A stretch of 64,000 nucleotides of DNA from Chloroflexota bacterium. GTDB taxonomy: Bacteria; Chloroflexota; Limnocylindria; Limnocylindrales; CSP1-4. The notes below the pieces were generated by a model. The model searched no databases. It saw nothing but the letters and a program-made list of their open reading frames with translations, and was not told where the DNA came from. This document shows, in pieces, positions 7,391 through 64,000 of the stretch. The stretch spans positions 76,011 through 140,010 of the forward strand of contig JBBIIL010000003.1 of assembly GCA_037446495.1 (NCBI GenBank), written 5' to 3'. Within the stretch, counting starts at the first letter, position 1. Each line of letters opens with the position of its first letter. Both the position numbers and the translations under genes were made by a program.

Positions 7391-7641
7391 GCACGCCCGA
7401 GCGGGCATGTCTCGCCCGAGCGGGCATGTCAGGCCCGGTGTCAGGCCCGGCCGTCCCTTCGACGCTGCGTCGAAGGTTTCGGCGGCCGACCGTCGGCTGT
7501 TCCCCTGCCAGTCGAGGAACCGGCGTTCCGGACGGGACTCGGTCCCCGCAAACGGTCGCACCTGCGCCTGACGGTCGAAGATGCGCCGTTCAGGCCGTGA
7601 AATCTTCGATGCAGCGGCGAGTCGGCCCGCGACGGCTCAGG
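7391..7641 (-). repeat. dispersed intergenic element, expanded copy (yraN stop to rpsB upstream)
   Basis: 7391-7465 and 7604-7641 align with 16241-16313. This copy also carries a 19-bp tandem duplication (7394-7412/7413-7431) and a 12-bp tandem duplication (7429-7440/7441-7452). A 138-bp insert (7466-7603) is bracketed by cttcgaYgc. Confidence 0.8.
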
Positions 7642-8134
7642 TTTCGATGCCGCGGTGGTGGCGAAGGGCAGGACGACCGTCCGGCCGGCGATCGATCGCC
7701 ACCAGGTCGATCCGCACGGGCAGGGCCGGCAGCCGTCGCCCATCCGGCAGCGTCTCGCGGATGGCCAGCTCGCCAGCTGCACGCCGGAGCGCAGCCCGCT
7801 TCCGGTAGTCAATCGTCTCCTCTGCGAGGCCGAAATCGCGGCGGCTGCGAAGGCGCACCTCCACGATCACCAAGCACGGCGGGTCCGACGGGTCGATGGC
7901 GAGCAGGTCAATCTCCGCACGGCTCAGGCGAAGATTCCGAGCGACGATCTGCCACCCGAGCGCCTCGAGCCTGACGCCGGCCAGCCGCTCGGCGTCGTCG
8001 CCGATGCGTTGGGCCTCCGTTGATCTCGCTCGCTCCACAGCGAGATCCTGCCCCGGGTCGATCAACCGCGACTTATCGGTGCATTGCCGGGTCGGCACCA
8101 CGACCGCGAGAGACGAAGTGTCCACCTCTCGCAC
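7637..8134 (-). CDS. YraN-family (UPF0102) endonuclease-like protein; start uncertain
   Basis: GDDAERLAGVRLEALGWQIVARNLRLSRAEIDLLAID...VIVEVRLR matches the YraN core. Family members are about 120 aa, so the true start is probably internal. Confidence 0.7.
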   Translation of the reverse strand: MREVDTSSLAVVVPTRQCTDKSRLIDPGQDLAVERARSTEAQRIGDDAERLAGVRLEALGWQIVARNLRLSRAEIDLLAIDPSDPPCLVIVEVRLRSRRDFGLAEETIDYRKRAALRRAAGELAIRETLPDGRRLPALPVRIDLVAIDRRPDGRPALRHHRGIET

Positions 8135-8354: not shown

Positions 8355-11300
8355 ATGGATGCATGCGGCAACGTCTCCTGCGGCTTCGCCATGGCTGAGC
8401 GCGCCGAGCTCGAAGTTGACGCTCGTCGGGCGGCGCCCGCCAGCCGATCGGCCAACGGCGCCACGGTCGAGGCCGCCCCCGAGTCCGCTCGCGGCGAGAT
8501 TGCCGGTGCGCGTGCGCGGGGCCGGACGGGCCTGAATCCCCGCCAGGTTCTCGCGATGCAGCGTCTCGTGGGCAACCGCGCTGTGATGGATGCACTGGGG
8601 GCCGACACCTCGACATCGAACGGCAGCGGCGAGGACCTCGTCGAGGCCATGGGCGTCGGCGCGAGGGTCGGCGAGGCGGCCGGCGGCGCGATGGCTGGCA
8701 TGGCCGCCGCCGACGAGACCCTGGGCCGCGGTCAGCGCGGTGCGAGCATGGCCGGCATGGGCCAGGCTGGGCTGGCCGGCGGGATCCCCGGGTCAAGCGC
8801 GGTTGGGACGGCCGGGCTCGAGGGGCCGGCAACCGGCGGCGCGATGGCGGGCGGTGCAGAAGCCGCGGGCGGTGCCGCTGCCGCTGGATCCGCAGTCGTC
8901 GGGACGGCCGGGCTCGCCGGGCAGGGAGCCGGCGGCGCGATGGGCGGCGCTGCAGATACCGCGGGATCCACAGTGGTCGCGATCGCCGGCATGGGCGAGG
9001 CGGCCGGCGGCGGACTGGCCGGGCTCGCCGGACAGGCAGCGGGCGGCGGGATGGCTGGCGGTGCAGAAGCCGCGGGCGGCGCGGCCCAGCAGGCCGAGGC
9101 CTCGGGGCCCGCCACTGGCGCGAACCCTGGCCTCGCAACCGGCGGTGCCGCGGGAGCGGAGCATGCCGATGCAGAAGTCGCGGGCACGTCGGGCCAGGGC
9201 GCGGGGGGGATCGGCCGCGAGACCGGCGCCGCGACAGCAGGGGCCTCGCCCGGTGGCGCCGGCGTCGGCCACGGCGGCGAGACGGCGAGCCACGGGCCCG
9301 CAGGGAGCGAGGCGTCCGCTGGCGAGGCCCCCGATGCAGCTGACGAATCCGCCCAAGCGGGGGAGGCCGCGACGACCGGCAGCGGCGGTGCCGGCGGCGG
9401 CCTTGATCTCGACGCGCCCCCGCCGGCCGGCGAGCCCATCCCCGACGCGACGGTTCCTGCAGCACCGTCCGCCACCGAGGTCAACCGGCTCGGCGAGGCA
9501 CCGCCCGAGGCAGCAATCGAAGCCGGCGAAGTCCAAGCGAGCGAGGAAGGCGAGGTCGAGGAGGAGGACCCGACGGCCGAGGTGTCGGGGCAGGCCGAGT
9601 CGGTGGCGTCGGCAGGTCAGGATGCCGGCGACGGCGGTGTGATCGACGCTGTCGTCAACCGCGCCAAAGCCGCCTTCCGCAGTGTCGCGAACACGGTGAC
9701 CGGTGCCGCCCGCGGGGTCGCCAGCACGGTCTCGGGCGTCGTCCGCAACGCGGTCCGCGGCGCACGCAACCTCGCTCGCAGCATCGTCGACGGCATCGTC
9801 TCGTCGGCGCGGTCCATCAAGGACGGCGTCGTCACCGGCATCCGCGGCGTCTTCGGGTCGGTGATGTCGGCGGCCCGCGGCGTTGTGAACCGCCTGATGG
9901 GCGCCGTCTCAGGCGCCATGAGCAGCGTTCGTGGCGCGGTCATGGCCGCCATCGGGCGGGCACTCCGGGGCGAGCCCCTGATCCCCAATTTCCTCGCGCC
10001 GGTCACCGCGTTCCTTCACCGGCTGTTCGGCGACATCCCCGGCCAGGTCACGCGGATGGTCACGCAGCTCACGCAGACGGCGAACCGGTACGTGGACATG
10101 CTGATCGGCGGCGTCGTGGCCCTCAGCCAGCGGGTGGCTGCAGGCGTCGCCGGTCTCGCGAGCGTGCTGCAAGCGGGCGTGACGGCAGCCGCCAACGCCA
10201 TCTCCAGCCTGGCCGGCCGCGCGGCATCGCTGGTTGCCGAGCTGCCCGGGCTGCTGCGCAGTGCGGTGAGCTGGCTGGTGGATCGGCTTGTCGCTGGCGT
10301 GCGCGCCGCGGTCCGTGCGATCGAGGGCATCGTCAACCGTGCGATCACGAGCATGTCCGCGCGGATCCAGGCCTGGGTCGCCCGCCAGGCCGAGCGGATC
10401 GTCGCCGTCATCGGCCGGGTTCGAGACGCAGTCGTGGCCGCCGCGCAGTGGGTCGCCAACCTGATCCGAGCCGCGCTCGCCCGGCTGGCTGCCTTCCGCG
10501 ACTGGCTGATCCGCGGCGCCACAGCCGTCCTCGGCCGCGTCCTCCGGCGGGTGCTCCAGCCGCTCCAGCAGGCCCTCATGCGGTACGTCATCGGGCTGAT
10601 CGGACCCGAGGTCCACACGGCCATCGCCACGGCGCAGGCGCTGTTCCCCAACGGCATGCCGACCCCGCCGCAGCTCCCGCAGGCGCAGGCCGACGCGGCA
10701 TCGCAGGCCAGCAGCAGCGCGACCGACGAGATCCTCAACGGCCTCATCAACCCCGAGGGCGACCACTTCTCGGTCGGCTTCACCGTCGGCGGCGACATCG
10801 CCTTGGGCGGCGGGATCTCGGGCGGGATCACGCCGCTGCAGCTCGACGTGGTCATGGACTACCGACGCAACGACATCGGGTTCTTCGTGTCGCCCGGGGC
10901 CAGCGTCCAGGGGAACATCGGCGAGGCGGGCGCCGTCGCGTCGGAGTCGGTCAACTTCGCGTGGGGCACCGTGGGCTCGTTCGGCAACAAGGACAAGGAC
11001 GTGCTCCAGGCGTACGGCGGCATGTTCTCCAACGCGAACTACGGCTATGCGATCGGCGGCGCCTACGAGGCCGGCGTTGGCCTCAGCTCCGGCGGGACGA
11101 TCTATCGGGGCGGCTCGTACGACTTCGGGCCTTCGGTGGACATGCCGATCGCATTCGGCTCCACGCACAGCGTCCCCGGCGACCACACGCCGACCATCCG
11201 AGAAGGCCGGCCGGACGCGTTTGACACGATCCGTCTGGGCGAGGTCCTGTTCCCGCGGGGCAGCGCGGACGTCAACGCCAGCTCGAACGGGGCCACGGCG

Positions 11301-12050
11301 ATCACCGACGCCGCCGCGACCGTGAACGGCTACCCGGCGGCGCACGACGGCGCGAACGTGATCCGCGTCTCCATCAGCGGCGAGGCGAGTCGGGTCTGGA
11401 GCCACCCGCGGCCCGGCGAGAGCCGCGAGGACGACAACGCCACCCTGGCGCAGCACCGGGCGGAGAACGTCCGCGACCGCCTGCAGCCACTGGTGCCGAG
11501 TCAGTCCATCAGCGCCCAGGGCTTCGGCGACTCGTCGGCGGCGCGGGCGGGCAAGGCGGAGAGCGACGCCAGCCCCGAGGACCAGCGCGCCACGATGTTC
11601 GCGGACGCCTACAAGGCCGGTGACGCTGGTGGCTTCGGGCCCGACCAGGTTGGCCCCGACCGCCAAGTCCCCGACACCTTCAACATCCGCCCGGGCCTCC
11701 CGACCGGCTTCGTGGACTTCTCGCAACGCCAGGCCTGGGGCTGGGACACGACCCTCAGCGTCGCGGCCCTCGAGGGCGCCCAAGCGAAGACGAGCGTGTT
11801 CGCCGGCGCGGGCGTGAGCTACTCGGTGCCCCTCGGCAAGACGCACTTCGCGCCTGAGACGATGACCAAGATCCGGGTCGCCTTCGGCCTGGCGAAGATC
11901 GTCGGCGACATCATGACCCTCAGCCCGCTCGGTCTGGCCCGCGACCTCCTGGGCGTGGCGCCCGGCGTCGAGGCCCTCGTCCACGAGCACTTCGGCCAGG
12001 CCGTGGGCGACTGGACAATCCCGACGCCCTCCGGCATCGCCGTGGCGTAG
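8355..12050 (+). CDS. 1231-aa multidomain protein of unknown function with an N-terminal LQRxxGNRAV-type motif, Gly/Ala tandem repeats, 11-mer amphipathic repeats, a long helical region, a Gly-rich beta-like region, an OmpA-C-like domain and an unknown C-terminal domain
   Basis: Uninterrupted ORF with GC-rich third codon positions and GAGG 7 nt upstream of the ATG. VLAMQRLVGNRAVMDAL lies near the N-terminus. The segment NATLAQHRAENVRDRL...ISAQGFGDSSA resembles the NxxLSxxRAxxV core of OmpA/MotB C-terminal domains. I see no N-terminal signal peptide. Confidence 0.75.
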   Translation: MDACGNVSCGFAMAERAELEVDARRAAPASRSANGATVEAAPESARGEIAGARARGRTGLNPRQVLAMQRLVGNRAVMDALGADTSTSNGSGEDLVEAMGVGARVGEAAGGAMAGMAAADETLGRGQRGASMAGMGQAGLAGGIPGSSAVGTAGLEGPATGGAMAGGAEAAGGAAAAGSAVVGTAGLAGQGAGGAMGGAADTAGSTVVAIAGMGEAAGGGLAGLAGQAAGGGMAGGAEAAGGAAQQAEASGPATGANPGLATGGAAGAEHADAEVAGTSGQGAGGIGRETGAATAGASPGGAGVGHGGETASHGPAGSEASAGEAPDAADESAQAGEAATTGSGGAGGGLDLDAPPPAGEPIPDATVPAAPSATEVNRLGEAPPEAAIEAGEVQASEEGEVEEEDPTAEVSGQAESVASAGQDAGDGGVIDAVVNRAKAAFRSVANTVTGAARGVASTVSGVVRNAVRGARNLARSIVDGIVSSARSIKDGVVTGIRGVFGSVMSAARGVVNRLMGAVSGAMSSVRGAVMAAIGRALRGEPLIPNFLAPVTAFLHRLFGDIPGQVTRMVTQLTQTANRYVDMLIGGVVALSQRVAAGVAGLASVLQAGVTAAANAISSLAGRAASLVAELPGLLRSAVSWLVDRLVAGVRAAVRAIEGIVNRAITSMSARIQAWVARQAERIVAVIGRVRDAVVAAAQWVANLIRAALARLAAFRDWLIRGATAVLGRVLRRVLQPLQQALMRYVIGLIGPEVHTAIATAQALFPNGMPTPPQLPQAQADAASQASSSATDEILNGLINPEGDHFSVGFTVGGDIALGGGISGGITPLQLDVVMDYRRNDIGFFVSPGASVQGNIGEAGAVASESVNFAWGTVGSFGNKDKDVLQAYGGMFSNANYGYAIGGAYEAGVGLSSGGTIYRGGSYDFGPSVDMPIAFGSTHSVPGDHTPTIREGRPDAFDTIRLGEVLFPRGSADVNASSNGATAITDAAATVNGYPAAHDGANVIRVSISGEASRVWSHPRPGESREDDNATLAQHRAENVRDRLQPLVPSQSISAQGFGDSSAARAGKAESDASPEDQRATMFADAYKAGDAGGFGPDQVGPDRQVPDTFNIRPGLPTGFVDFSQRQAWGWDTTLSVAALEGAQAKTSVFAGAGVSYSVPLGKTHFAPETMTKIRVAFGLAKIVGDIMTLSPLGLARDLLGVAPGVEALVHEHFGQAVGDWTIPTPSGIAVA

Positions 12051-12076
12051 GCAAAGGGCCGAACGGAGGTTCCCGC

Positions 12077-12634
12077 ATGCCGCTCCCCGCACCCGATTCC
12101 CCGCCCGTCGGCACGCCGCCGGTGCTCTGGACCTCGCCAGCCGACGAGGCGCCCCTCGTGACGGGCGACGGCGAGGGTGGCGTTGGTGCCGGAGCGTTCA
12201 CCCCGGCGCCGTTCCGGGACGTGGTGATCGACGCGGTCGTGGAGCTTCAGTCGGGCGGCGACGATGCAGCCTGTGGGGTGTTCTTCCGCCAGGTGGACGA
12301 ACGCGACTACCTCGGGTTCAGCGTCACCGCCTCCGGCCGCGCGGTGATCTTCGCGGTGGCCGGCGGGCAGTTGCGGGTCCTCGCCGACGGGCCGATCCCC
12401 GCCGACGCCCCGTACGAGCGGGGGATCCCGGCGGCGAACCGCCTCACGGTCGTGACGGCGGGGCCGTCGATCACCTGCGTCCTCAACAGCTACGTGCTCA
12501 CGGGGGTGATCGCGGAGCCCCGGTACAAGGCCGGGCTTGCCGGGGCGCTCGTGGTGCCCGGCCAGCCGGGTGTGGCCGCGGCGGCGAGGGTCCGCTGGGC
12601 GCAGGTCCGCGCGCTGCTGCCCGACCAGGCGTAG
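12077..12634 (+). CDS. 185-aa hypothetical protein, possibly a concanavalin-A-like/DUF1080-like jelly roll
   Basis: GGAGG 9 nt upstream of the ATG, starting 27 nt after the stop of the 1231-aa gene. The alternating beta-strand-like pattern (VIDAVVELQ, GVFFRQVDERDYLGFSV, RLTVVTAGPSITCVLN) is only a fold guess. Confidence 0.5.
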   Translation: MPLPAPDSPPVGTPPVLWTSPADEAPLVTGDGEGGVGAGAFTPAPFRDVVIDAVVELQSGGDDAACGVFFRQVDERDYLGFSVTASGRAVIFAVAGGQLRVLADGPIPADAPYERGIPAANRLTVVTAGPSITCVLNSYVLTGVIAEPRYKAGLAGALVVPGQPGVAAAARVRWAQVRALLPDQA

Positions 12635-12637
12635 CCC

Positions 12638-13432
12638 TCAGGCGCCCGCGTCGGCGTCGAGGTCGAGCGCGAGCGCGGCCGCCACCAAGTCCGCGTTGAA
12701 GTCGGGCGCGACGCCAGCCTCGTGCGTTGCTTCATCATCGGCCAGCACATCGTCCTCGGCCCTCGCCCTGCCGCTCGCGTCCGCGTCGAACAGCTCCAGC
12801 TGGTCGCCCGCGAGCAGCACCTGGAGGGCCTGCCAGCTCTTGCGGTGATGCGGCGTGAGGCCGTGGGCGCGAATCGCCTCGCGGTGCTCGAGCGTGGCAT
12901 ACCCCGCGTTGCGCTCCCAGCCGTACTGCGGGTAGCGGAGCGCGAGGCTGCGCATCATCCGGTCGCGGACGGTCTTGGCGACAACCGAGGCGCACGCGAT
13001 CGAGTAGACCAGCGCATCGCCGTCCACGATGGCCGTGTAGGCGCCAACATGCCGCTCGAAGTCGGCGATGCGGAGGCCGTCCACGAGCACGTGGTCGTGG
13101 CCGCCCAAGCGGGCGATGGCGCGGCGCATCGCGAGATGGGTCGCGTGGTAGATGTTGAGCCGGTCGATGTCCGCGACCGATGCTGCGCCGAGGCCAACGG
13201 CCACAGCCCGCCGCCGGATGATCGGGGCGAGCCGCTCGCGCTGACCGGCGGACAGGGTCTTCGAGTCCCGAACGCCTTCGATGCGCTTGCAGTTGGGCGG
13301 CATGACCACTGCCGCGGCCACCACCGCGCCGCAGGTCGGGGCCACGCCCACCTCGTCCACGCCGGCGATCCGCAGCTGGCCCGCCTGCCACAGGAGGCGC
13401 TCGAAGCGGAGGGTGGGGACGATCGGCGTCAT
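12638..13432 (-). CDS. rnhB: ribonuclease HII with acidic C-terminal extension
   Basis: IAGVDEVG and DSKTLS motifs. The ATG at 13432 (MTPIVPTLRFERLLW) is preferred, because the longer track ORF would overlap the divergent PhzF gene. Confidence 0.85.
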   Translation of the reverse strand: MTPIVPTLRFERLLWQAGQLRIAGVDEVGVAPTCGAVVAAAVVMPPNCKRIEGVRDSKTLSAGQRERLAPIIRRRAVAVGLGAASVADIDRLNIYHATHLAMRRAIARLGGHDHVLVDGLRIADFERHVGAYTAIVDGDALVYSIACASVVAKTVRDRMMRSLALRYPQYGWERNAGYATLEHREAIRAHGLTPHHRKSWQALQVLLAGDQLELFDADASGRARAEDDVLADDEATHEAGVAPDFNADLVAAALALDLDADAGA

Positions 13433-13478
13433 CACCGAAAGCGTAGCGCCGCCGGGCGATCGGCGGCACACTCGCGCC

Positions 13479-14309
13479 ATGCAGCGACCCTTTGCGCAGG
13501 TCGACGTCTTCACCACCGGACCCGGCATGGGCAACCCGCTGGCCGTTGTGCTCGACGCCGCGGGCCTGGCGGCCGCCGACATGCAGCGCTTCGCGCGCTG
13601 GACGAACCTGTCGGAGACGACGTTCGTCGTCCCCACCGACGACCCTGACGCCGACTACGCCGTGCGGATCTTCACGCCCGACTCGGAGCTGCCGTTCGCC
13701 GGCCACCCGACCCTCGGGACATGCCACGCCTGGCTTGAGTCGGGCGGGCGGCCCCGGGACCCGGAGCGGATGGTCCAGGCGTGCGCGGCCGGGCTGGTGG
13801 AGGTGCGGCGGCACGGCGACGGCCTCGCGTTCGCCGCTCCCCCGCTCCGCCGCTCGGGCCCCGTTGACGAGGCGGACCTCGGCGTTGTGGCCGCGTCCCT
13901 GGGGATCTCCCGGGACGACATCCAGGACGCCGTCTGGGCCGACAACGGGCCGGGATGGATGGCGCTGCTGCTCAGCGATGCCGAGGCGGTGCTGGCGATC
14001 GCGCCGGGCGCGGTTCCGCTCGACGTCGGTCTGGTGGGCTTCTACCCGGCGGGCTCGCCGGCGGCAATCGAGGTGCGCGCCCTCTACCCGCAGAACGGCT
14101 TCACGGTGGAGGACCCCGTGACGGGCAGTCTCAACGCGTCAGTGGCCGGGTGGCTGCTCGAGACGGGCCGGATCACCGCCCCGTACGTGGCCAGCCAGGG
14201 GACCGCGATCGGCCGCGCCGGCCGCGTCGAGGTGTTCGCGACCGAGGATGGACGCGTCTTCGTGGGGGGCCGGACTCTCACCCTGGTCACCGGGACAGTG
14301 GACATCTAG
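13479..14309 (+). CDS. PhzF-family isomerase-like protein
   Basis: MQRPFAQVDVFTTGPGMGNPLAVVLD N-terminus and overall length are typical of the PhzF/YddE family. Confidence 0.85.
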   Translation: MQRPFAQVDVFTTGPGMGNPLAVVLDAAGLAAADMQRFARWTNLSETTFVVPTDDPDADYAVRIFTPDSELPFAGHPTLGTCHAWLESGGRPRDPERMVQACAAGLVEVRRHGDGLAFAAPPLRRSGPVDEADLGVVAASLGISRDDIQDAVWADNGPGWMALLLSDAEAVLAIAPGAVPLDVGLVGFYPAGSPAAIEVRALYPQNGFTVEDPVTGSLNASVAGWLLETGRITAPYVASQGTAIGRAGRVEVFATEDGRVFVGGRTLTLVTGTVDI

Positions 14310-50877: not shown

Positions 50878-51078
50878 TGGGCCTCGAGCGTCGCGGGCGC
50901 GGCTCCCTCTGGCGGGCCGCGGCGGGCCTCTAAGTCTACGGAACGTCGCCGACCCGTGCGGGGGAGAGACGCCGCGCCGGCGGCGGCGGGCGCAACGCCG
51001 TTGCCGAGCCCCTCGTGAAGGCTTCTGAACGGAGACTTCGCCAGCCCAGTTCCGCTCGGCATCGTATGATCCGGCGCG

Positions 51079-52941
51079 ATGTCGACGCCATCGCGTTCTC
51101 TGCGTGCCCCGCGTGCGCGGTCCGCCTTCGGGGCGGCCTTCCTGTCCCTGGTCTTCCCCGGGCTCGGGCACGCATATGCGGGCGCCTGGGCCCGGGCCTT
51201 GGGCTTCGCGGCCCTGCCCCTGCTGGCGGTCGCCGCCGGCGCTGGCATCGTGCTCGAGAGCGACAGGTTCAAGCTCCTCGCTGCGTTCGCCAGCCCAACC
51301 GTGCTCGACGGCGTTCTCGTCGTCAACATCGTCGCGTTCCTGTATCGCGCCGCGGCCGCCGTCGACGCCTGGAATGTGGCCAGGTTCCTCAACATGGCGG
51401 ACGCTTCCGGCGACGGGCGCCTCGGCCGGGCCCGCATGGCCATCAACCCGCTGTCCATTGCCGGTCTCGCCGCGATCGTGCTCGTCATGGCCGGCTCGCA
51501 CCTCGTGGTCTGGCGTTACGACGCGCTGGCCCTCTCAGTGGTCAACTGCCTCAACCCCGACACGGCAGATGCGAGTTGCGACTCCGCCAACGGGAACGGG
51601 ACCGCCAACGCACCGGGCGGGCAACCGTCTGCCTCCACCGCGGGCAGCGATTCATCGGCGAACGCCACGCCGTCGTCCATCCCCACCCCGATCGGCTCGG
51701 ACACGGGCGCCACCCCGGCCCCGTCGCTCCCGCCCTGGGACGGCACGAGCCGCCTCAACATCCTGCTCGTGGGCACCGACCAGCGGACGGAGTCGCAGGC
51801 CGCGTTCAACACCGACACGGTGATCGTGGTCTCGATCGACCCCAAGACCAAGCAGGTCGCAATGCTCCAGCTGCCGAGAGACACCGCGAACGTCCCGGTG
51901 CCGCCCAACGCGCAGGGCGTCTGGGGCTCCGTGTACCAAGGCAAGATCACCTCCTGGTTCGCGGCCAATGAGAATCTCACGAACCTGTGGCCGGGGAAGA
52001 CGGCCCAGGCGCGCGGCTTCGCTGCCCTGCAGTCGATCCTGGGCAACCTGTACGGCCTGAGCATCCCGTACTACGTGAAGGTCGACTTCAAGGGCTTCAC
52101 GGACGCCGTGGACACGCTGGGCGGCGTGCAGGTCAACGTCCAGATCCCCGTGGCCGAGGACGAGTTCCCGTTCACCGACCAGATCAAGACCCGCGTGTAC
52201 ATCCCCGCCGGCCCGCAGGAGATGAACGGCCAGCAGGCGCTCATCTATGCCCGCTCGCGCCACGGCTCGAACGACTTCGACCGCGGCCACCGCCAGCAGC
52301 GCGTGATCCTCTCGCTCAAGAACGAGCTCAACCCGCAGACGGTGTTCGCGAACCTGTCCAGCTTCGTCGAGTCGCTCAAGTCCGCCGTCAAGACCAACAT
52401 CCCCGTGGGCGACACCACGACGATGGGCAGGCTCCTCAGCCTGGCCTCCCAGATCGACACCAAGAACATCCGCTCGTACGTGTTCTCGCCGCCCTACTTC
52501 GCCACTGACATGTGGGGGCCATCAGGTGGCACGAACAGCAACATCGTGATCAAGACGGCACGCGTCCAGTCGGCCGTGCAGCAGGCATTCAGCCTGAGCC
52601 CGGCGCTGCTGGCCCTGCGCGACACCCTCAGCGCCGAGGCGGCGCAGGTGTGGGTCAAGGACGGCACGAACGGCATGGGCCTGGCCGGCAATCACGCCGC
52701 CTACCTCGACTACTTCGGGATGGACGCCTCGGCACTGACGAAGCTCGCCTCGGCGACGCCCGCCCATACCACCGTCACCGTGTTCAATGGCGCCGCATCG
52801 CGCCTGTCGGCCACGATCAAGTACCTGCAGAGCCTGTACGGCGTTACCGTGCAGTCCGCCACGGATCCGGCGGTCAAGGCGGACGTCGTCATCTTGATCG
52901 GTCGAGACGCGCAGCAGCTCACGGTGCCATCCGCCGGTTGA
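51079..52941 (+). CDS. LytR-CpsA-Psr (LCP) family cell-envelope phosphotransferase with N-terminal TM region and LytR_C-like C-terminal domain
   Basis: RLNILLVGTDQR ... DTVIVVSIDP ... LPRDT ... MNGQQALIYARSRH ... DFDRGHRQQ are typical LCP core motifs. Confidence 0.88.
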   Translation: MSTPSRSLRAPRARSAFGAAFLSLVFPGLGHAYAGAWARALGFAALPLLAVAAGAGIVLESDRFKLLAAFASPTVLDGVLVVNIVAFLYRAAAAVDAWNVARFLNMADASGDGRLGRARMAINPLSIAGLAAIVLVMAGSHLVVWRYDALALSVVNCLNPDTADASCDSANGNGTANAPGGQPSASTAGSDSSANATPSSIPTPIGSDTGATPAPSLPPWDGTSRLNILLVGTDQRTESQAAFNTDTVIVVSIDPKTKQVAMLQLPRDTANVPVPPNAQGVWGSVYQGKITSWFAANENLTNLWPGKTAQARGFAALQSILGNLYGLSIPYYVKVDFKGFTDAVDTLGGVQVNVQIPVAEDEFPFTDQIKTRVYIPAGPQEMNGQQALIYARSRHGSNDFDRGHRQQRVILSLKNELNPQTVFANLSSFVESLKSAVKTNIPVGDTTTMGRLLSLASQIDTKNIRSYVFSPPYFATDMWGPSGGTNSNIVIKTARVQSAVQQAFSLSPALLALRDTLSAEAAQVWVKDGTNGMGLAGNHAAYLDYFGMDASALTKLASATPAHTTVTVFNGAASRLSATIKYLQSLYGVTVQSATDPAVKADVVILIGRDAQQLTVPSAG

Positions 52942-59931: not shown

Positions 59932-60018
59932 TGGTCCCGAGGGCGAGGTTCGAACTCGCACGGGGTTGCCCCCGGCGGTGTTTAAGACCGCCGCGTCTGC
60001 CGGTTCCGCCACCTCGGG
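59932..60018 (-). tRNA. tRNA-Leu (anticodon TAA), class II with long variable arm, CCA encoded
   Basis: The minus strand reads cccgaggtggcggaaccggcagacgcggcggtCTTAAACaccgcc...gcgagttcgaacctcgccctcgggacca. Acceptor, T arm and anticodon loop were folded by eye. Confidence 0.85.
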
Positions 60019-60072
60019 CAAGACCGATCGTAGTCCCTCCGGGCCGTCCACCGCTGAGCCGTCCGCCCGGTT

Positions 60073-60708
60073 CTAGAACCGGTACCCGTCGCGCCGCAGG
60101 GCTTCGATCCGGCGCTTGCGCAGGTCCAGCGACTGGTAGCCGAAGGCGAGGGTTCCGAGCAGGAACGCGATCGCCACCGCCGGCACGTCGCCACGCAGCG
60201 CGCCCGCCGGCCCGACACTGTGCAGGTCGGCCAGGTGCACGCGTCCTGCGAGGAGCAGCACCCCGGTCGTCGCCCAGGTGGCACCCGCGTAGCCCGTGAT
60301 GGCCGCCACGAACACCGAGGGCGCGTCGGCGACGATCATGACGACGCTGATGACGACGCCCGCCACGATGCCCCCCAGCAGCGTCAGCGGGCCACCGTCG
60401 ATCCCGATGGCCGCCAGGAGCCCGCTTCCGACGGTCGCTCCCAGCCCGATCCCCAGCACGAGCACGGCGCCGTCGAACCACAGGCCGGCGAGCGCCGCCA
60501 GCACCAGGCCCAGCGTGGCGCCGGCCAGCCAGCCACCGAGCGTCGCGAACAGCCCGTCGCCCGCGATCGACGCCACGAGGTCCGCGCCCAGGACGAGTCC
60601 GGTGAGGAACCCCCAGAGCGGCAGGAGGACGTAGAACATCCGGGTCCCGAAGCCGGCGACCACCGCCCCGACGATGATCGCCGCGGCGGCCACCAGCAGC
60701 GTCTCCAC
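60073..60708 (-). CDS. multipass (about 6 TM) Gly/Ala/Leu-rich membrane protein, hypothetical (possibly DUF4203-like)
   Basis: 211-aa ORF of hydrophobic helices with a basic C-terminal tail (LRKRRIEALRRDGYRF). The family guess is from memory. Confidence 0.5.
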   Translation of the reverse strand: METLLVAAAAIIVGAVVAGFGTRMFYVLLPLWGFLTGLVLGADLVASIAGDGLFATLGGWLAGATLGLVLAALAGLWFDGAVLVLGIGLGATVGSGLLAAIGIDGGPLTLLGGIVAGVVISVVMIVADAPSVFVAAITGYAGATWATTGVLLLAGRVHLADLHSVGPAGALRGDVPAVAIAFLLGTLAFGYQSLDLRKRRIEALRRDGYRF

Positions 60709-60802
60709 GCGCTACCTCCTCGATCGCGCCGACACGGCGCGCCCGCCCACGGTAGCGCGCATCCGGGCCGCCACCAACGCCGAACCGGCCCCCGGAAACG
60801 CC

Positions 60803-60828
60803 GAACCGGCCCCCGAGAGGGCCGGTTC
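60803..60828 (-). terminator. candidate terminator hairpin after the tRNA cluster
   Basis: Perfect 10-bp stem gaaccggccc/gggccggttc with a 6-nt loop, 13 nt downstream of tRNA-Cys. The left arm belongs to an 18-bp direct repeat (60777-60794 and 60798-60815). The T-tract is weak. Confidence 0.45.
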
Positions 60829-60840
60829 TGGTTCAGTCAG

Positions 60841-60917
60841 TGGAGGCGACGGTCGGATTCGAACCGACGAATAAGGGTTTTGCAGACCCCCGCGTTGGGC
60901 CACTTCGCCACGTCGCC
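60841..60917 (-). tRNA. tRNA-Cys (anticodon GCA), CCA encoded
   Basis: The minus strand reads ggcgacgtggcgaagtggcccaacgcgggggtCTGCAAAacccttattcgtcggttcgaatccgaccgtcgcctcca. The cloverleaf was folded by eye. Confidence 0.85.
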
Positions 60918-61020
60918 GCGTCGAGCGTGATCGTGAGGATACCGGGAACGTGCCGTTCCTGCGACGTCGCCGGGGCCCCGGTCGGGCCTGGGCAGGGCGC
61001 CGCGGGCGTCCCCGGAGAGT

Positions 61021-61094
61021 TGGCTGCCCCTCGAGGATTCGAACCTCGGCTCACGGATCCAAAGTCCGCTGTCCTACCGCTAGACGAAGGGGCA
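61021..61094 (-). tRNA. tRNA-Gln (anticodon TTG), CCA encoded
   Basis: The minus strand reads tgccccttcgtctagcggtaggacagcggaCTTTGGAtccgtgagccgaggttcgaatcctcgaggggcagcca. The U1-A72 pair is typical of tRNA-Gln. Confidence 0.85.
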
Positions 61095-61129
61095 GGGCGC
61101 CACGGGCTAGGGTACGCGATGAGGGGGAG

Positions 61130-61205
61130 TGGAGCGGAAGACGGGACTCGAACCCGCGACCCTCACCTTGGCAAGGTGATGCTCTACCAACTGAGCCACT
61201 TCCGC
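61130..61205 (-). tRNA. tRNA-Gly (anticodon GCC), CCA encoded
   Basis: The minus strand reads gcggaagtggctcagttggtagagcatcaccTTGCCAAggtgagggtcgcgggttcgagtcccgtcttccgctcca. Confidence 0.9.
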
Positions 61206-61225
61206 TCGATATGCCGACCGAGTGT

Positions 61226-61301
61226 TGGTGCCGAGAGCCAGATTCGAACTGGCGACACCGCGATTTTCAGTCGCGTGCTCTACCAACTGAGCTACCTCGG
61301 C
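61226..61301 (-). tRNA. tRNA-Phe (anticodon GAA), CCA encoded
   Basis: The minus strand reads gccgaggtagctcagttggtagagcacgcgaCTGAAAAtcgcggtgtcgccagttcgaatctggctctcggcacca. Confidence 0.9.
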
Positions 61302-61387
61302 CCGGACCCGGGATCCCGCAGGAGCCCCGTCGGCGGGGCGGAGAATACCACGGCCCCGGAACGGGCGTCCACCGTGCCGGGGCGGCC

Positions 61388-62515
61388 TCAGCGCCACCCC
61401 TGCCAAGTGAACCCCGGGGGCGTCGCGGGAGGTTCGGGCGGCCGGGGCGGGTCCGGCGGAGCCGGGGGCGACGGTGGATCGTCCGACCCAGCGGTGCTCG
61501 CCTCGAGGCCCCGCAGCCCGGCATCCACCACGGGCGCGTCGTTGACCACGACGAGACTCGGCGAGTCGACCGGCGCCTCGCCGGTGAGCTGGCGCAGGCG
61601 GTTGATCCGGTCCAGCACCGGCGGGTGCGTCGAGAACATGTCGCTCGACTCCGCGGTCGCCGCCTTGACGGGGTTCTCGAAGTAGAGGTGCTGGGTGGCG
61701 CGGTTCGCCACCTCGAGCGGTTCGGTGTCCAGGGCGATCTTGGCGAGCGCCCGCTCCAAGCCGTACGGGTTGCGCGTGAGCTCCACCGACGACGCATCCG
61801 CGAGGTACTCGCGCTGGCGGCTCACGGCCAGCTGGACGAGCTTGGCCGCGATCGGCGCCACGATCGCGAGGACCAGGGCGATGATCATCATGATGGCCGC
61901 GAAGCCGCCCGACTCGCCGGAGTTGCTGCTGCGCCGCCGCCGACCGCTCACGCTGCCCCAGAAGGTCATCCGCAGGAACATGTCCGAGATCAGCGCCACC
62001 GCGCCCACGAGGACGCCCACCATCAGCGAGAAGCGGATGTCGAAGTTGCGGACGTGCGATAGCTCGTGGCCCATGACGCCCTGAAGCTCCTCCCGGTCGA
62101 GCTTCTGGAGCAGCCCCACAGTGATCGCCACCGACGCGTGTTGCGGGTCTCGCCCGGTCGCGAAGGCGTTGGGCGCCGTGTCGTCGATGATGTAGACGCG
62201 GGGCATGGGGACGCCGGCCGCGGTTGCCATCTCCTGGACGACATTGAAGAACTGCGGGGCCGAGTTGGCGTCCACCTCCTTGGCCCCAGACGATGCCAGC
62301 ACGATCGCGTCCCCGGCGTAGAACGCGATCAGCGCGGAAGCGAAGCCCACGATCAGCGCGATGGCCGCCGCCACGGCGCCGTAGCCGACGGAGCCGCCTG
62401 CCGCCCCGCCGATGGCGAACCCGAGCGCACCGAGCAGCAGGACCACGACCAGCGAGAGCAGCACCGAATTGCGGCGGTTGGCCGCGATCTGGTTGTAGAA
62501 GGTCGCCGTCGCCAT
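61388..62515 (-). CDS. htpX: M48-family zinc metalloprotease HtpX-like with Pro-rich C-terminal extension
   Basis: GVMGHELSHVRNFD (HExxH) motif, TM helices, and a second Glu (REYLADASS). It lies immediately downstream of lemA. Confidence 0.88.
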   Translation of the reverse strand: MATATFYNQIAANRRNSVLLSLVVVLLLGALGFAIGGAAGGSVGYGAVAAAIALIVGFASALIAFYAGDAIVLASSGAKEVDANSAPQFFNVVQEMATAAGVPMPRVYIIDDTAPNAFATGRDPQHASVAITVGLLQKLDREELQGVMGHELSHVRNFDIRFSLMVGVLVGAVALISDMFLRMTFWGSVSGRRRRSSNSGESGGFAAIMMIIALVLAIVAPIAAKLVQLAVSRQREYLADASSVELTRNPYGLERALAKIALDTEPLEVANRATQHLYFENPVKAATAESSDMFSTHPPVLDRINRLRQLTGEAPVDSPSLVVVNDAPVVDAGLRGLEASTAGSDDPPSPPAPPDPPRPPEPPATPPGFTWQGWR

Positions 62516-62579
62516 GGGGTGAGCGGAGCCGGGCTCCGGGGCCGGACGGGCGCTGTGGCCGCCGGCGCCGGGTTGCGGG

Positions 62580-63143
62580 CTACTTGAGGCTCAGGTCCAC
62601 GGTCGGGACGGCCTGCGCCTCGGGCTCGGCCGCGAAGAACTCGCGCTTGGCGAAGCCAAACATCCCAGCGAGGAGGACCGCCGGGAACGTCTGGATGCCG
62701 TTGTTGTAGTCGAGCACGGTGGCGTTGTAATGCTGCCGTGCGAAGCTGATCTGGTTCTCCGTGGTGCTGAGCTGCTCCTGAAGGCTCAGGACGTTCTGGT
62801 TCGCCTTGAGGTCCGGGTAGTTCTCCGCCACCGCGAACAGCGAGCGCAGGGCGCCGGTCAGCTGGTTCTCCGCGGCGGACTGGGCGGCCGGGCCCTGGGC
62901 ACCAGCCGCGATCGCGCTGGCGCGGGCTTCGGTGACCTTCGTCAGGACGTCCTGCTCGAAGCTCATGTAGCCCTTCACGGCCGCGACGAGGTTGGGGATC
63001 AGGTCGTGGCGGCGCTTCAGCTGGACGTCGATCTGGCTGAACGCCTCATCGACGCGGTTGCGCCTCCCGATGAGGCCGTTGTAGATGCCGATGACCACCA
63101 CGACGATGACGACGATGATGGCCAGCACGATGAGGAGCGGCAT
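62580..63143 (-). CDS. lemA: LemA-family protein
   Basis: MPLLIVLAIIVVIVVVVIGIYNGLIGRRNRVDEAFSQIDVQLKRRHDLIPNLV is the canonical LemA N-terminus. The ATG at 63143 follows GGAGGGAG. Confidence 0.9.
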   Translation of the reverse strand: MPLLIVLAIIVVIVVVVIGIYNGLIGRRNRVDEAFSQIDVQLKRRHDLIPNLVAAVKGYMSFEQDVLTKVTEARASAIAAGAQGPAAQSAAENQLTGALRSLFAVAENYPDLKANQNVLSLQEQLSTTENQISFARQHYNATVLDYNNGIQTFPAVLLAGMFGFAKREFFAAEPEAQAVPTVDLSLK

Positions 63144-63362
63144 GGAGTCGGTCTCCCTCCGGCTGGGAGCCCCTCGCGGACCCCGTGGGAGCCAGCATAG
63201 CGCGGCACGCGCCGCGTGTCGGCGGTCAGCGGCGCACGCGCGCGTGTCGGCGGTCAGCGCCGCAAGAGATGCCTGCCCATGCTCGGCCGCGGGTCCGGGA
63301 CATCCCTTCCGAATCACACCGAGGCGCGTCGGCACGAGGGTCACCGCGCGTCGGCCGCCCTG

Positions 63363-63419
63363 CTGACTCCCAGGCCGCACATTCCGTGTGCACGGCTCCG
63401 AGTGCGGCCTGGGAGTCAG
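63363..63419. repeat. 18-bp perfect inverted repeat (19 bp with the flanking G-C pair) around a 21-nt spacer
   Basis: ctgactcccaggccgcac (63363-63380) pairs with gtgcggcctgggagtcag (63402-63419). The spacer itself contains ccgtgtgcacgg. Confidence 0.85.
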
Positions 63420-63676
63420 CGAGGTGACCGGCCACGGATCAGATCCACGGCCCCATGAGGACGAGCGCTGCCTGCCGGGCCGCACAGCGACCAAGATGGG
63501 CCGGAAGTGCGGCCGCACAGGCATCAGGTCACCGGGATGGCCCTCGGCCGTGCGACGGGACGGGGGGTCGTGTCGCCCGTCAGCGTCGCCCGTGATCCCT
63601 GCCCGTGCTCGACGTCGCCGATGTCGCGACTCACGTGTCGCCCATGTCGCGACGCATGACAGTGGTGGGCGGTGAG

Positions 63677-63750
63677 TGGGCGGTGAGGGACTCGAACCCC
63701 CGACATCCTCGGTGTAAACGAGGCGCTCTGACCAGCTGAGCTAACCGCCC
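63677..63750 (-). tRNA. tRNA-Val (anticodon TAC), CCA not encoded
   Basis: The minus strand reads gggcggttagctcagctggtcagagcgcctcgTTTACACcgaggatgtcgggggttcgagtccctcaccgccca. Confidence 0.88.
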
Positions 63751-63799
63751 GGAACGTGAAACGGGCGGCCCGTCGGCCGCCCGCGAGGGGTCAGGAGAG

Positions 63800-63884
63800 T
63801 GGTGCCCAGGCCGGGACTTGAACCCGGATGAGTTGCCTCATACGCCCCTCAAACGTACGCGTATACCAATTCCGCCACCTGGGC
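63800..63884 (-). tRNA. tRNA-Leu (anticodon GAG), class II, CCA encoded
   Basis: The minus strand reads gcccaggtggcggaattggtatacgcgtacgtTTGAGGGgcgtatgaggcaactcatccgggttcaagtcccggcctgggcacca. Confidence 0.85.
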
Positions 63885-63923
63885 AGGTGTCCCGCTCGCC
63901 GTGTGCCGTCACACCGCAGTGGG

Positions 63924-64000
63924 TGGTACCGAGGGAGGGAGTCGAACCCACACGACCTTGCGGCCACTGGTACCTGAAACCAGCGCGTCTACCATTCCGC
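63924..64000 (-). tRNA. tRNA-Leu (anticodon CAG), 5' end cut by the window edge
   Basis: The minus strand reads ...gcggaatggtagacgcgctggtTTCAGGTaccagtggccgcaaggtcgtgtgggttcgactccctccctcggtacca. The acceptor 5' strand lies beyond position 64000. Confidence 0.8.

Follow-up and report, generated by a model that had tools for sequence, protein, structure and literature searches.

In an uncultured soil Chloroflexota bacterium, the genes yraN and rnhB enclose a two-gene cassette that encodes a very large protein and a small partner (Table 1). The window, i.e. the whole stretch of DNA that was analysed, spans 64 kb. An opposite-strand two-gene insert had been described here in a first-pass annotation, and both ORFs and both flanking genes were recovered as named. 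While the pair does lie on the plus strand, against the minus-strand gene flow described, a PhzF-like gene at 13281-14309 is also on the plus strand, and the pair is therefore not the sole plus-strand gene in the vicinity. The intergenic gap, previously given as 27 nt, measures 26 nt, and the partner gene does have its own GGAGG ribosome-binding site. At the other end, rnhB and the partner gene are convergent, with their stop codons 3 nt apart. Both genes are real, as they are conserved residue by residue in more than 30 homologues, and an identical 1231-aa product is present in an NCBI-derived collection. Judging from several homologues, the large protein may alternatively start at M13 (ATG at 8391, 'MAERAELE'). 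The third-position GC content (GC3) of the large gene (0.89) and of the partner gene (0.92) is host-gene-like.

Table 1. Features of the yraN-rnhB interval, in window coordinates
Feature	Position	Strand	Details
Left flank, yraN (UPF0102)	7637..8134	-	Pfam PF02021, E = 1e-17
Large gene	8355..12050	+	1231 aa; GC3 0.885; 32 homologues
Leader motif P..VLAMQRLVGNRAVMDAL	8538..8597	+	Residues 62-81; Q, G, N and A invariant across the family
Gly/Ala-rich low-complexity region	8595..9389	+	Residues 81-345; imperfect repeats of ~32-37 aa
Acidic Pro/Glu-rich spacer	9390..9629	+	Residues 346-425; net charge -18
Arg-rich amphipathic helical region, hendecad periodicity	9630..10724	+	Residues 426-790; tape-measure-like
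Beta-rich Gly/aromatic domain, first part	10725..11216	+	Residues 791-954; opens with an invariant PEGDH motif
OmpA-like (OmpA_C / Pal / MotB-type) alpha/beta domain	11217..11615	+	Residues ~955-1087; contains NATLAQHRAENV
Linker, two long beta strands (WGWD...SYS motifs), C-terminal helical hairpin	11616..12047	+	Residues 1088-1231
GGAGG ribosome-binding site of partner gene	12065..12069	+	7 nt upstream of the ATG at 12077
Partner gene	12077..12634	+	185 aa; 48 homologues
Right flank, rnhB (RNase HII)	12638..13636	-	Pfam PF01351, E = 2e-35

Comparison of this interval across metagenomic relatives identifies the pair as an insertion, because yraN directly adjoins rnhB in 41 of 46. At least four related genomes stably carry the pair at the same locus, and the partner adjoins the large gene in 17 of the 17 loci examined. 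No housekeeping function is assigned to any homologue of either gene, and most close relatives are without the pair at this position. The family, which amounts to ~32 clusters among 5.8 billion proteins, occurs mainly in Chloroflexota and spans several phylum-level lineages. The two genes are best explained as a self-contained, horizontally mobile cassette.

From its N-terminus, the large protein consists of a leader, a disordered Gly/Ala-rich stretch with an acidic spacer, ~360 residues of basic hendecad helices and a beta-rich domain embedding an OmpA-like domain. The leader (VLAMQRLVGNRAVMDAL, residues 65-81) had been likened to the LQRxIGNxAV type associated with DUF4157 proteins and polymorphic toxins, a resemblance that proved significant. 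A 36-column profile of the widespread motif VLAMQRLVGNRAV matched 1385 protein clusters (E<=1e-3), the median distance of the motif from the N-terminus being 41 residues. Based on these matches, the VLxLQRxxGNxAV form of the leader is common to more than 1000 clusters, made up of eCIS_core (DUF4157) proteins and polymorphic toxins. Among the 91 longer matches, 12 have PF13699 (eCIS_core/DUF4157), against a published background of ~0.06% (PMC11297309), and the leader is thus strongly enriched in such proteins; in the PF13699 proteins checked here, it sits just N-terminal to that domain. The leader is likewise strongly enriched in polymorphic-toxin proteins, the other domains in this set being Ntox11, deaminase, ADP-ribosyltransferase, nuclease, lipase, Hcp, OmpA (three matches) and PG_binding_1 (two matches), and in one protein a canonical OmpA domain accompanies the leader. 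A precedent for an orphan is a DUF4157 protein encoded on a Streptomyces plasmid, which also bears this leader and whose gene is followed by a small one, contractile injection system (CIS) genes being absent within 15 kb. The large protein itself has no DUF4157/PF13699 domain by Pfam and no HExxH motif, and no DUF4157 gene was found adjoining the pair.

The tandem Gly/Ala repeats and acidic spacer that the earlier annotation placed after the leader are both present. Residues 81-345 contain 29% Gly and 28% Ala and have a net charge of -20, their coding DNA contains imperfect 96-111-nt repeats of two families (D1 and D2), and the region aligns poorly among homologues. Of the helical region, 8-10 consecutive 11-residue amphipathic repeats had been reported; there are ten at residues 430-540 (lag-11 autocorrelation z = 8.8), and the periodicity extends to ~790 (z = 7.1). 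The region has a net charge of +24 and, according to sequence analysis, no hydrophobic segment of transmembrane grade. It matches DUF7217, Baculo_PEP_C and the amphipathic region of VPS13C weakly and resembles the lipid-binding helices of apolipoprotein, Baculo_PEP_C and VPS13C. What the first reading missed is that, on profile evidence, the helical region is tape-measure-related, its kinship being with the repeat region of these phage proteins: the best tape-measure PHROG match of the large protein is at 1.2e-9, and such matches occur in 10 of 10 family members tested (best, 2e-17). This relationship links the large protein with the Tme/Sle1 class of effectors, which was described recently; residing in repetitive helices, the similarity could be convergent. 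The same matches, along with one JGI homologue labelled 'phage-related protein', would also fit a decayed prophage or tailocin that left behind a tape-measure gene and a tail accessory gene. That origin is highly improbable, however, as the pair is accompanied by no further phage genes in any context examined, the family is absent from the 2.9 million viral contigs searched, selection has kept the pair intact in several phylum-level lineages, and neither the leader nor the OmpA-like/beta module is a tape-measure feature.

Beyond residue ~791, the sequence is Gly-rich and predicted to be beta-structured, as noted before, with six long antiparallel strands in the AlphaFold2 (AF2) model of residues 791-954, for which Foldseek gave no confident solved-structure match. 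The OmpA-like wall-binding segment that had been proposed next stands at the level of fold. Foldseek aligned it with Pal, the AbOmpA C-terminal domain, RmpM and MotB (E = 2.5e-4, target TM-score <=0.68), and a family profile matched YfiB, OprF and OmpA among PDB sequences (E = 4e-4). The Pfam OmpA match (E = 6e-4; 19-20.5 bits) falls under the gathering score of 27.2, and the binding site is non-canonical. In PF00691 domains (OmpA, Pal, OprF, YfiB, MotB), the Asp of the GHTD motif touches the diaminopimelate of the wall peptide; here, that position is an invariant Ser1012, and the domain has an 8-residue insertion, whereas the fold and the NxxLSxxRAxxV helix motif, including its conserved Arg, are shared. 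Unlike its counterparts in those proteins, the domain is, in the model, embedded within a larger beta-rich domain, of unassigned fold, of a signal-peptide-less protein. Although the C-terminal end had been said to have no recognizable feature, AF2 gives two long strands and a helical hairpin in the last ~145 residues (E349-360, E366-385, H388-408 and H412-441 of the C-terminal part), which probably complete the beta-rich domain.

The partner, originally described as a small jelly-roll-like protein, is indeed a jelly-roll, of the kind seen in ConA-like lectins. AF2 models it with high confidence (pLDDT 92.3) as a ConA/CBM66-like beta-sandwich, and Foldseek matches it to CBM66 and galectins (E = 3e-8, probability 1.0), with a query TM-score of 0.60-0.67 against Bacillus subtilis CBM66. 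It differs from proteins of this fold in its low sequence identity to them (14-17% only), its lack of a Pfam match and its conserved Pro-rich N-terminal tail (MPLPPPDxPPxGxPPVLW), and it is a stand-alone, cytoplasmically made protein.

A small gene directly downstream and always co-inherited is in the classic position for immunity, and the pair might be an interbacterial toxin and immunity protein of the polymorphic type, the C-terminal beta domain damaging or perforating a target envelope, the OmpA-like domain anchoring in the target wall and the partner giving immunity. The toxin domains that accompany the leader elsewhere and the mobility of the cassette would agree with this, as would long amphipathic Gly/aromatic strands and a weak BFVD alignment to whole 'outer membrane protein' models, both of which fit membrane beta structure. 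We nevertheless consider such a pair unlikely: conserved alignment columns indicate that the C-terminal module is kept family-wide rather than being polymorphic, Pfam and Foldseek found no known toxin or pore-former fold, a lectin-like beta-sandwich carrying a conserved Pro-rich tail is not what one would usually expect of an immunity protein, and in a deep branch of the family a third gene lies between the two.

As the first-pass annotation had stated, Sec/Tat signals are not apparent; a crude hydropathy test revealed no hydrophobic segment at the N-terminus of either protein (maximum KD(12) ~1.2). Since a wall-binding-type fold is here combined with the lack of a signal segment, a non-Sec route would be needed. 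No contractile-injection, type VI or type VII secretion families are encoded within +-10 kb in seven distinct annotated contexts or, in agreement with the earlier statement, among the large ORFs of the window, while for 88% of known eCIS toxins the operon is no more than ten genes away (PMC11297309). These absences, the replaced Asp, the long disordered Gly/Ala and acidic regions and the lack of a signal peptide or transmembrane-grade segment would all suit a protein that is never exported, e.g. a scaffold or condensate former whose OmpA-like fold binds a non-wall ligand and whose leader is an interaction peptide unrelated to export. This is rather improbable, for OmpA-like domains are almost always extracytoplasmic modules of the wall or periplasm, and the leader is found overwhelmingly together with domains of secreted toxins, with wall-binding domains and with Hcp.

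A better, if still doubtful, candidate is an endogenous envelope protein of the producer, such as a membrane-to-wall tether or a component of a surface layer or sheath. Export would be directed by the leader, along a route that uses neither Sec nor a contractile system; the amphipathic helices would rest against the membrane, with the OmpA-like module gripping the wall and the partner attached to a wall glycopolymer. The lack of nearby CIS genes, the shared locus in related genomes, the lipid-binding character of similar helices and the lack of any toxin-domain match are consistent with such a protein, and the window encodes a wall-glycopolymer ligase of the LCP family. The family-wide conservation of the C-terminal module and the fully host-like composition also fit a stably inherited cellular function, which counts against an effector. 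Yet a patchy and rare family that most close relatives lack at this locus would be odd for a core envelope component, the known company of the leader is toxins and eCIS_core proteins, and we know of no export route of the kind required.

The closest described counterparts are cargo proteins of contractile injection systems. In Tme (BN159_7576) of Streptomyces davawensis, DUF4157 is combined with a tape-measure-like region and a functional domain at the C-terminus (PMC11126660). Like the large protein, Tme is very large and signal-peptide-less and has an eCIS-effector-class module at its N-terminus, together with long disordered and coiled regions, remote tape-measure homology and a distinct C-terminal functional domain; it differs in having a full DUF4157 domain rather than the leader alone, predicted transmembrane helices, an EndA-like nuclease in place of the beta/OmpA-like module, and a position inside a CIS cluster beside baseplate genes. 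In Streptomyces lividans, Sle1 and Sle2 are tape-measure-like cargo that moves to membranes and has variable C-terminal domains, and the gene downstream of one Sle1 relative encodes an immunity protein (PMC13277306). They too form a two-gene unit, with a helix-rich, tape-measure-related large member that has a separate C-terminal domain and a tightly linked small gene. However, Sle2 is a DUF4157 protein, Sle1/2 are always beside a sheath gene, and Sle1-type effectors are from Actinobacteria, with C-termini that vary between species. Other eCIS-associated toxins, e.g. AlgoCIS Cgo1/Cgo2 and EAT14, share the general plan seen here, the N-terminal region being disordered and the effector C-terminal (PMC8894135, PMC11297309), and cell-wall-binding LysM modules occur among eCIS toxins (PMC11297309, Table 1). 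Cargo loading in AlgoCIS needs the N-terminal region, not DUF4157, and loading sequences are not conserved between systems (bioRxiv 10.64898/2026.05.27.728243).

Overall, the first-pass observation is confirmed and its interpretation supported; the secretion link, then called speculative, is one that we still infer. Our leading, though tentative, reading is that the pair comprises either an orphan tape-measure-related effector of the injection-system type or an envelope-acting protein, together with an accessory partner. As an 'orphan' cargo of the Tme/Sle1 type, the large protein would be loaded into phage-tail-like contractile particles, its leader directing it to an apparatus encoded elsewhere in the genome. 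Once ejected, the protein would span or cover the membrane with its extended helical rod and attach by its C-terminal module to a cell wall, either the producer's own or that of a neighbour. The lectin-fold partner might be an obligate accessory, be it a chaperone/adaptor, a glycan-binding co-factor or an immunity-like protein. Weighing against an effector are the lack of nearby injection genes, of DUF4157 and of the peptidoglycan-binding Asp. If the reading is true, the pair would represent a new kind of phage-tail-related effector, one without an injection machine encoded nearby.

Both open reading frames that the first-pass annotation had placed between yraN and rnhB are present (see the table below), separated by 26 nt rather than the 27 nt originally given, and the GGAGG reported for the smaller, downstream gene (the partner) lies 7 nt 5' of its ATG. 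For the large gene two starts are possible, the called ATG at 8355 (MDACGNVSCGFA...) and the ATG at 8391 (M13); the conserved N-terminus, MAERAELE, begins at the latter, and homologues vary between both starts, with several beginning at the equivalent of M13. The database record of the large protein is the 1231-aa form. Both genes of the cassette display the host-type codon-position GC pattern, with GC3 values of 0.885 for the large gene and 0.919 for the partner as compared with 0.90-0.91 for the host rpsB and rnhB, and the overall composition of the cassette is unremarkable, the sole exception being the stretch that codes for Gly and Ala. Scans with E. coli-type promoter and terminator models, which are uninformative for this phylum, returned nothing. 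The remaining large ORFs scanned in the window are housekeeping genes, including those for SMC, PriA, IleRS, RecG, a FakA-like protein and a LytR-CpsA-Psr (LCP) family protein. A PhzF-like gene (13281-14309, plus strand) overlaps a long, opposite-strand upstream extension of the rnhB ORF, which places the probable true start of rnhB near 13432 instead of 13636. At the end of the window (59935-64000) there is a minus-strand cluster of eight tRNA genes, the last of which is cut at the window end.

Locations of the cassette genes, their flanking genes and the additional ORF of the three-gene variant (L001 and L004, loci of related DNA)
Feature	Location	Strand	Basis
Large gene, 1231 aa	8355-12050	+	ORF
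Partner gene, 185 aa	12077-12634	+	ORF
yraN/UPF0102, flank	7637-8134	-	Pfam search
rnhB/RNase HII, flank	12638-13636	-	Pfam search
Third ORF, between large gene and partner	L001:13960-14403		
Third ORF, between large gene and partner	L004:5137-5592		

The N-terminus of the large protein had been likened to the leaders of proteins associated with extracellular contractile injection systems (eCIS), and profile searching bears this out. Every full-length family member carries the motif P..VLxLQ[RKHQA]xxGNxA[VMT] approximately 10-90 residues (median, ~55) from the called start; the called starts of two proteins, P0058 and P0069, in which the motif is at residues 9 and 30, look truncated. In an exhaustive search of 1.84 billion representative proteins with a 36-column profile of the leader (E <= 1e-3), 1385 proteins, each representing a cluster, gave a match. 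Within the best 146 matches from outside the family, the median start of the first motif is residue 41, and 15 have two tandem copies of the leader. The commonest Pfam family among the 91 matches of at least 140 aa is PF13699 (the 'eCIS core domain', DUF4157), which occurs in 12 of them and is thus enriched ~200-fold over its background of 0.06% among the non-toxin genes of eCIS-positive genomes (PMC11297309). Other domains in these 91 proteins include Ntox11, the XOO_2897 deaminase, Gln_amidase, Endonuclease_NS, Tox-ART-HYD1, the Tse2 ADP-ribosyltransferase and a lipase, and T6SS_HCP, OmpA (three proteins) and PG_binding_1 (two proteins) are also found. The leader lies ~20-120 residues N-terminal to PF13699 in the matching proteins P0138, P0087 and P0108, and in another, P0190, it is joined to a canonical OmpA domain without PF13699. 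In WP_329468045.1, encoded on a plasmid of Streptomyces sp. NBC_01431, a DUF4157 core containing HELTH comes after the leader (...QLLALQASAGNAAVVQMLRQ...); the next gene downstream is small and hypothetical, and genes for injection systems are absent within 15 kb. The large protein itself has no Pfam match to PF13699 even at E <= 1, and the HExxH motif is absent throughout its length. According to a 2026 preprint, cargo loading by AlgoCIS requires the N-terminal region and not DUF4157, and loading sequences are stated not to be conserved between systems (bioRxiv 10.64898/2026.05.27.728243). No model in Pfam or NCBIfam covers the leader motif itself, a literature search with several spellings found no paper naming it, and it may deserve a family definition of its own.

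Beyond the leader, residues 81-345 are 57% Gly+Ala, arranged as imperfect 32-37-residue repeats that are poorly alignable between homologues, and these are followed by an acidic stretch (residues 346-425; net charge, -18) and then by an Ala/Val/Arg-rich region (residues 426-790; net charge, +24), no segment of which reaches transmembrane-level hydrophobicity. The 11-residue periodicity of this last region is strong (z = 8.8 for residues 430-545 and z = 7.1 for 545-790), and the helical region of the window protein matches six tape-measure PHROG families, the best at 1.2e-9. When ten family members were tested, phrog_1272 was matched by all ten and phrog_58 by nine (best, 2e-17), and nearly all of the named PHROG matches across the ten are tape-measure or baseplate-hub families. 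Weaker matches, to DUF7217 and Baculo_PEP_C for the window protein, to Apolipoprotein and PRM1 among the precomputed matches of homologues, and to the C-terminal amphipathic region of VPS13C, likewise indicate amphipathic repeat helices of this type. The helical region probably shares ancestry with tape-measure proteins; as the resemblance is in a repeat, this is not proven. Unlike the gene of a phage tape-measure protein proper, the large gene is not part of a phage or prophage tail-morphogenesis module: it is surrounded by housekeeping or unrelated genes in each context, and no relatives of the family were found in the viral contigs searched; a prophage remnant was also considered, and rejected, as an explanation of the cassette. 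An analogy with T7SS or PE_PGRS proteins, in which Gly/Ala repeats follow an N-terminal domain, was dropped when no supporting motif or gene was found.

The C-terminal module (residues 780-1231) was modelled with AF2 on a 21-sequence alignment, giving a mean pLDDT of 81.8. In the model, six long antiparallel strands, the first of which is at an invariant PEGDH motif, are succeeded by an alpha/beta domain (model residues ~176-308, corresponding to protein residues ~955-1087; pLDDT, ~85-96), two further long strands (WGWD...SYS) and a two-helix hairpin. The only confident Foldseek matches in the PDB are OmpA-like, namely Pal, AbOmpA, RmpM, MotB, TssL and a chain of the Dot/Icm outer-membrane complex, with the top matches having E values from 2.5e-4, a probability of 1.0 and target TM-scores of 0.62-0.68, and the predicted domain is superposable on Pal, OmpA_C or MotB_C. 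Searching PDB sequences with the family profile recovered YfiB, OprF, OmpA, PA0833 and Pal (E from 4e-4). Hence, the OmpA-like segment proposed in the first-pass annotation holds at the level of the predicted fold but not at that of the Pfam family OmpA (PF00691), against which the window protein scores 19.0-20.5 bits, short of the gathering score of 27.2 bits. PF00691 is matched by six of the 21 family members, all with E >= 2.4e-4, so no member is likely to reach that score. In the alignment with OprF, the family has GEAS opposite the canonical GHTD, and an insertion of 8 residues comes next; the position of the canonical Asp is occupied by an invariant Ser1012, and the Arg of LSxxRA ('RRA'), R1035, is also invariant. 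The Asp of GHTD contacts diaminopimelate in the structures of AbOmpA and Pal, and the walls of Chloroflexota often contain ornithine in place of diaminopimelate; an ornithine-type wall could explain the altered putative site. For the beta-rich part of the module, Foldseek found no confident structural neighbour in the PDB or BFVD. Birnavirus VP2 and GH116 were discarded as matches to it (probability <= 0.06), as was a beta-barrel call from whole-length alignments with 'outer membrane protein' entries of BFVD, which are too weak (E = 2.4e-3; rmsd, 20-35 A). Across the 21 aligned members conservation extends through the C-terminal 450 residues, and 21 columns are invariant; in this the family departs from polymorphic toxins, in which a conserved N-terminal trafficking region is joined to toxin domains that vary from one homologue to another. 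Pfam detected no toxin family among the C-terminal domains of the 21 members.

The partner, which had been described as jelly-roll-like, is predicted by AF2 to be all-beta (pLDDT, 92.3), and Foldseek matches the model to B. subtilis CBM66 (query TM-score up to 0.67) and galectins, with E = 3e-8. The modelled structure is a beta-sandwich of the ConA-like lectin/glucanase fold, superposable on CBM66 or galectins, in agreement with the earlier description. Its N-terminal segment, MPLPPPDxPPxGxPPVLW, is conserved; no hydrophobic signal segment was found in the partner, and it has no match in Pfam. The downstream position of the gene, always adjacent and separated by so short a gap, is compatible with a putative immunity gene. 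The LCP-family protein of the window, of the wall-glycopolymer ligase type, is encoded at 51070-52941 on the plus strand; it fits a wall with attached glycopolymers, and the lectin-fold partner could in principle bind such polymers.

As had been noted at first pass for the window, genes for eCIS, T6SS or T7SS are missing from the neighbourhood: no such families occur in the annotated contexts or the scanned ORFs of the window, and within +-10 kb in seven distinct annotated contexts there is no contractile-injection operon, sheath/baseplate synteny or DUF4157 neighbour. Nothing emerged from a literature search that combined Limnocylindria with contractile injection, and a metagenome survey of contractile injection systems (CIS) does not mention Chloroflexota. 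The nearest described systems are the tape-measure-related effectors of actinobacterial CIS. Tme joins DUF4157 to a tape-measure-like region and, at the C-terminus, a nuclease, and is encoded inside the CIS cluster (PMC11126660). In the Sle1/Sle2 pair, a tape-measure-like cargo, to which a DUF4157 protein binds, is translocated to membranes; relatives of Sle1 have variable C-terminal domains and, in one case, an immunity gene downstream (PMC13277306). The large protein resembles the Tme/Sle1 type in its effector-class leader, tape-measure-like rod, separate C-terminal module and tightly linked small gene. However, the Tme/Sle1 type has DUF4157, which the large protein lacks both in cis and in any adjacent gene; its beta/OmpA-like payload is conserved, whereas Sle1-type C-terminal domains are variable; its partner has a predicted lectin fold; and, unlike the cluster-encoded Tme, it lies far from injection-system genes in every context seen. 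With eCIS_core effectors it has the N-terminal leader region in common, but PF13699 and HExxH are missing. By analogy, we infer that the large protein works like Tme/Sle1-type effectors, yet, because of the differences from Tme and Sle1, it is placed outside those families. The earlier observation stands and the interpretation given with it is supported overall, with the mechanism of the cassette, including any unconventional export route or action outside the producer cell, at the level of what we infer. The tape-measure relationship, the quantification of the leader as a widespread uncurated motif and the proof of insertion are new here. In the main rival to the effector reading, the large protein would belong to the producer's own envelope and reach it by an undescribed export route that depends on the leader; the conserved C-terminus speaks for this rival, whereas the company that the leader keeps argues for an effector.

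The large-protein family comprises ~32 clusters among 5.8 billion proteins, none with an informative name, and the partner family comprises 48. With the full-length large protein as query, the candidate list was crowded by Gly/Ala words and only nine proteins were retrieved, and a query lacking the Gly/Ala region retrieved 32; neither the large protein nor the partner has a match in NCBIfam or PADLOC. In a collection of species-representative genomes, the relatives are in metagenome-assembled genomes (MAGs) labelled Chloroflexi, Chloroflexia or Candidatus Limnocylindrales, apart from one Actinomycetes MAG and one Solirubrobacteraceae MAG. All 17 loci examined have the two genes next to each other in one and the same order, and a deep branch (L001 and L004) has a three-gene variant of the cassette, with a third ORF of ~150 aa whose two copies share 33% identity and match no Pfam family. 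Assembly ERZ25039495 holds two different copies of the cassette, L016 (contig 1582) and L017 (contig 21127), with large proteins of 1187 and 1246 aa and partners P0047 and P0042; these may be paralogues of one genome or may come from two MAGs. In several MAGs (L009, L012 and L013), the large gene has a broken reading frame inside the Gly/Ala-coding region. Such breaks, which probably stem from frameshift or assembly errors within the GC-rich repeat, explain why so many database gene calls are truncated at the N-terminus.

Comparison of the yraN-rnhB interval in relatives, which the first-pass annotation had suggested, establishes that the cassette is an insertion. The site is common to close relatives only (L002, L007, L008, L014 and L018), and in other carriers the pair lies among unrelated genes, e.g. 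LigD/sigma-70, PIN/antitoxin, methyltransferase or histidine kinase genes. When 80 metagenomic loci were fetched via RNase HII, 46 extended at least 700 nt beyond rnhB; yraN directly follows rnhB in 41 of these, including relatives whose RNase HII is 81-86% identical, and the cassette is present in only one, which is on the same contig as L002. No direct or inverted repeats were found at the cassette boundaries and its composition is fully ameliorated, so the insertion is not recent. Among cassette-free loci, the rnhB-yraN gap is ~750-900 nt in L023, L039, L041, L046, L050, L051 and L062, as against the usual ~90-150 nt; no similarity to the large gene or the partner was detected in the wide intervals, where the same insertion site may be occupied by another small gene or a remnant. 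The stable, host-like locus of the cassette favours the rival of an endogenous envelope protein, whereas the patchy distribution and the mobility of the cassette favour the effector reading.

A more far-reaching proposal, which we regard as improbable, is that the leader is the recognition signal of a widespread export/loading pathway and the cassette a new envelope-penetrating machine without a dedicated adjacent apparatus. If this were true, the leader would be the long-sought conserved cargo-loading signal of DUF4157-class CIS, or would mark a CIS-independent route, and the cassette would be a tape-measure-derived rod equipped with a wall anchor of its own, along with a lectin co-factor, hosted by monoderm-type Chloroflexota and Actinomycetota.

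Recent work on how contractile injection systems recognise cargo describes no loading sequence as conserved, and the leader, which is present in >1,300 clusters, either just upstream of eCIS_core or replacing it, and before many toxin or wall-binding domains, is a concrete candidate for a loading signal. Tape-measure-related effectors have been described only in 2024-2026, only in Actinobacteria and inside CIS clusters; with the large-protein family, the effector class would come to include Chloroflexota, an orphan gene location and a payload of a new sort, a beta/OmpA-like wall module with a lectin partner. A wall-binding-type fold in a protein without a signal peptide points to a non-classical envelope route in a major uncultured soil lineage.
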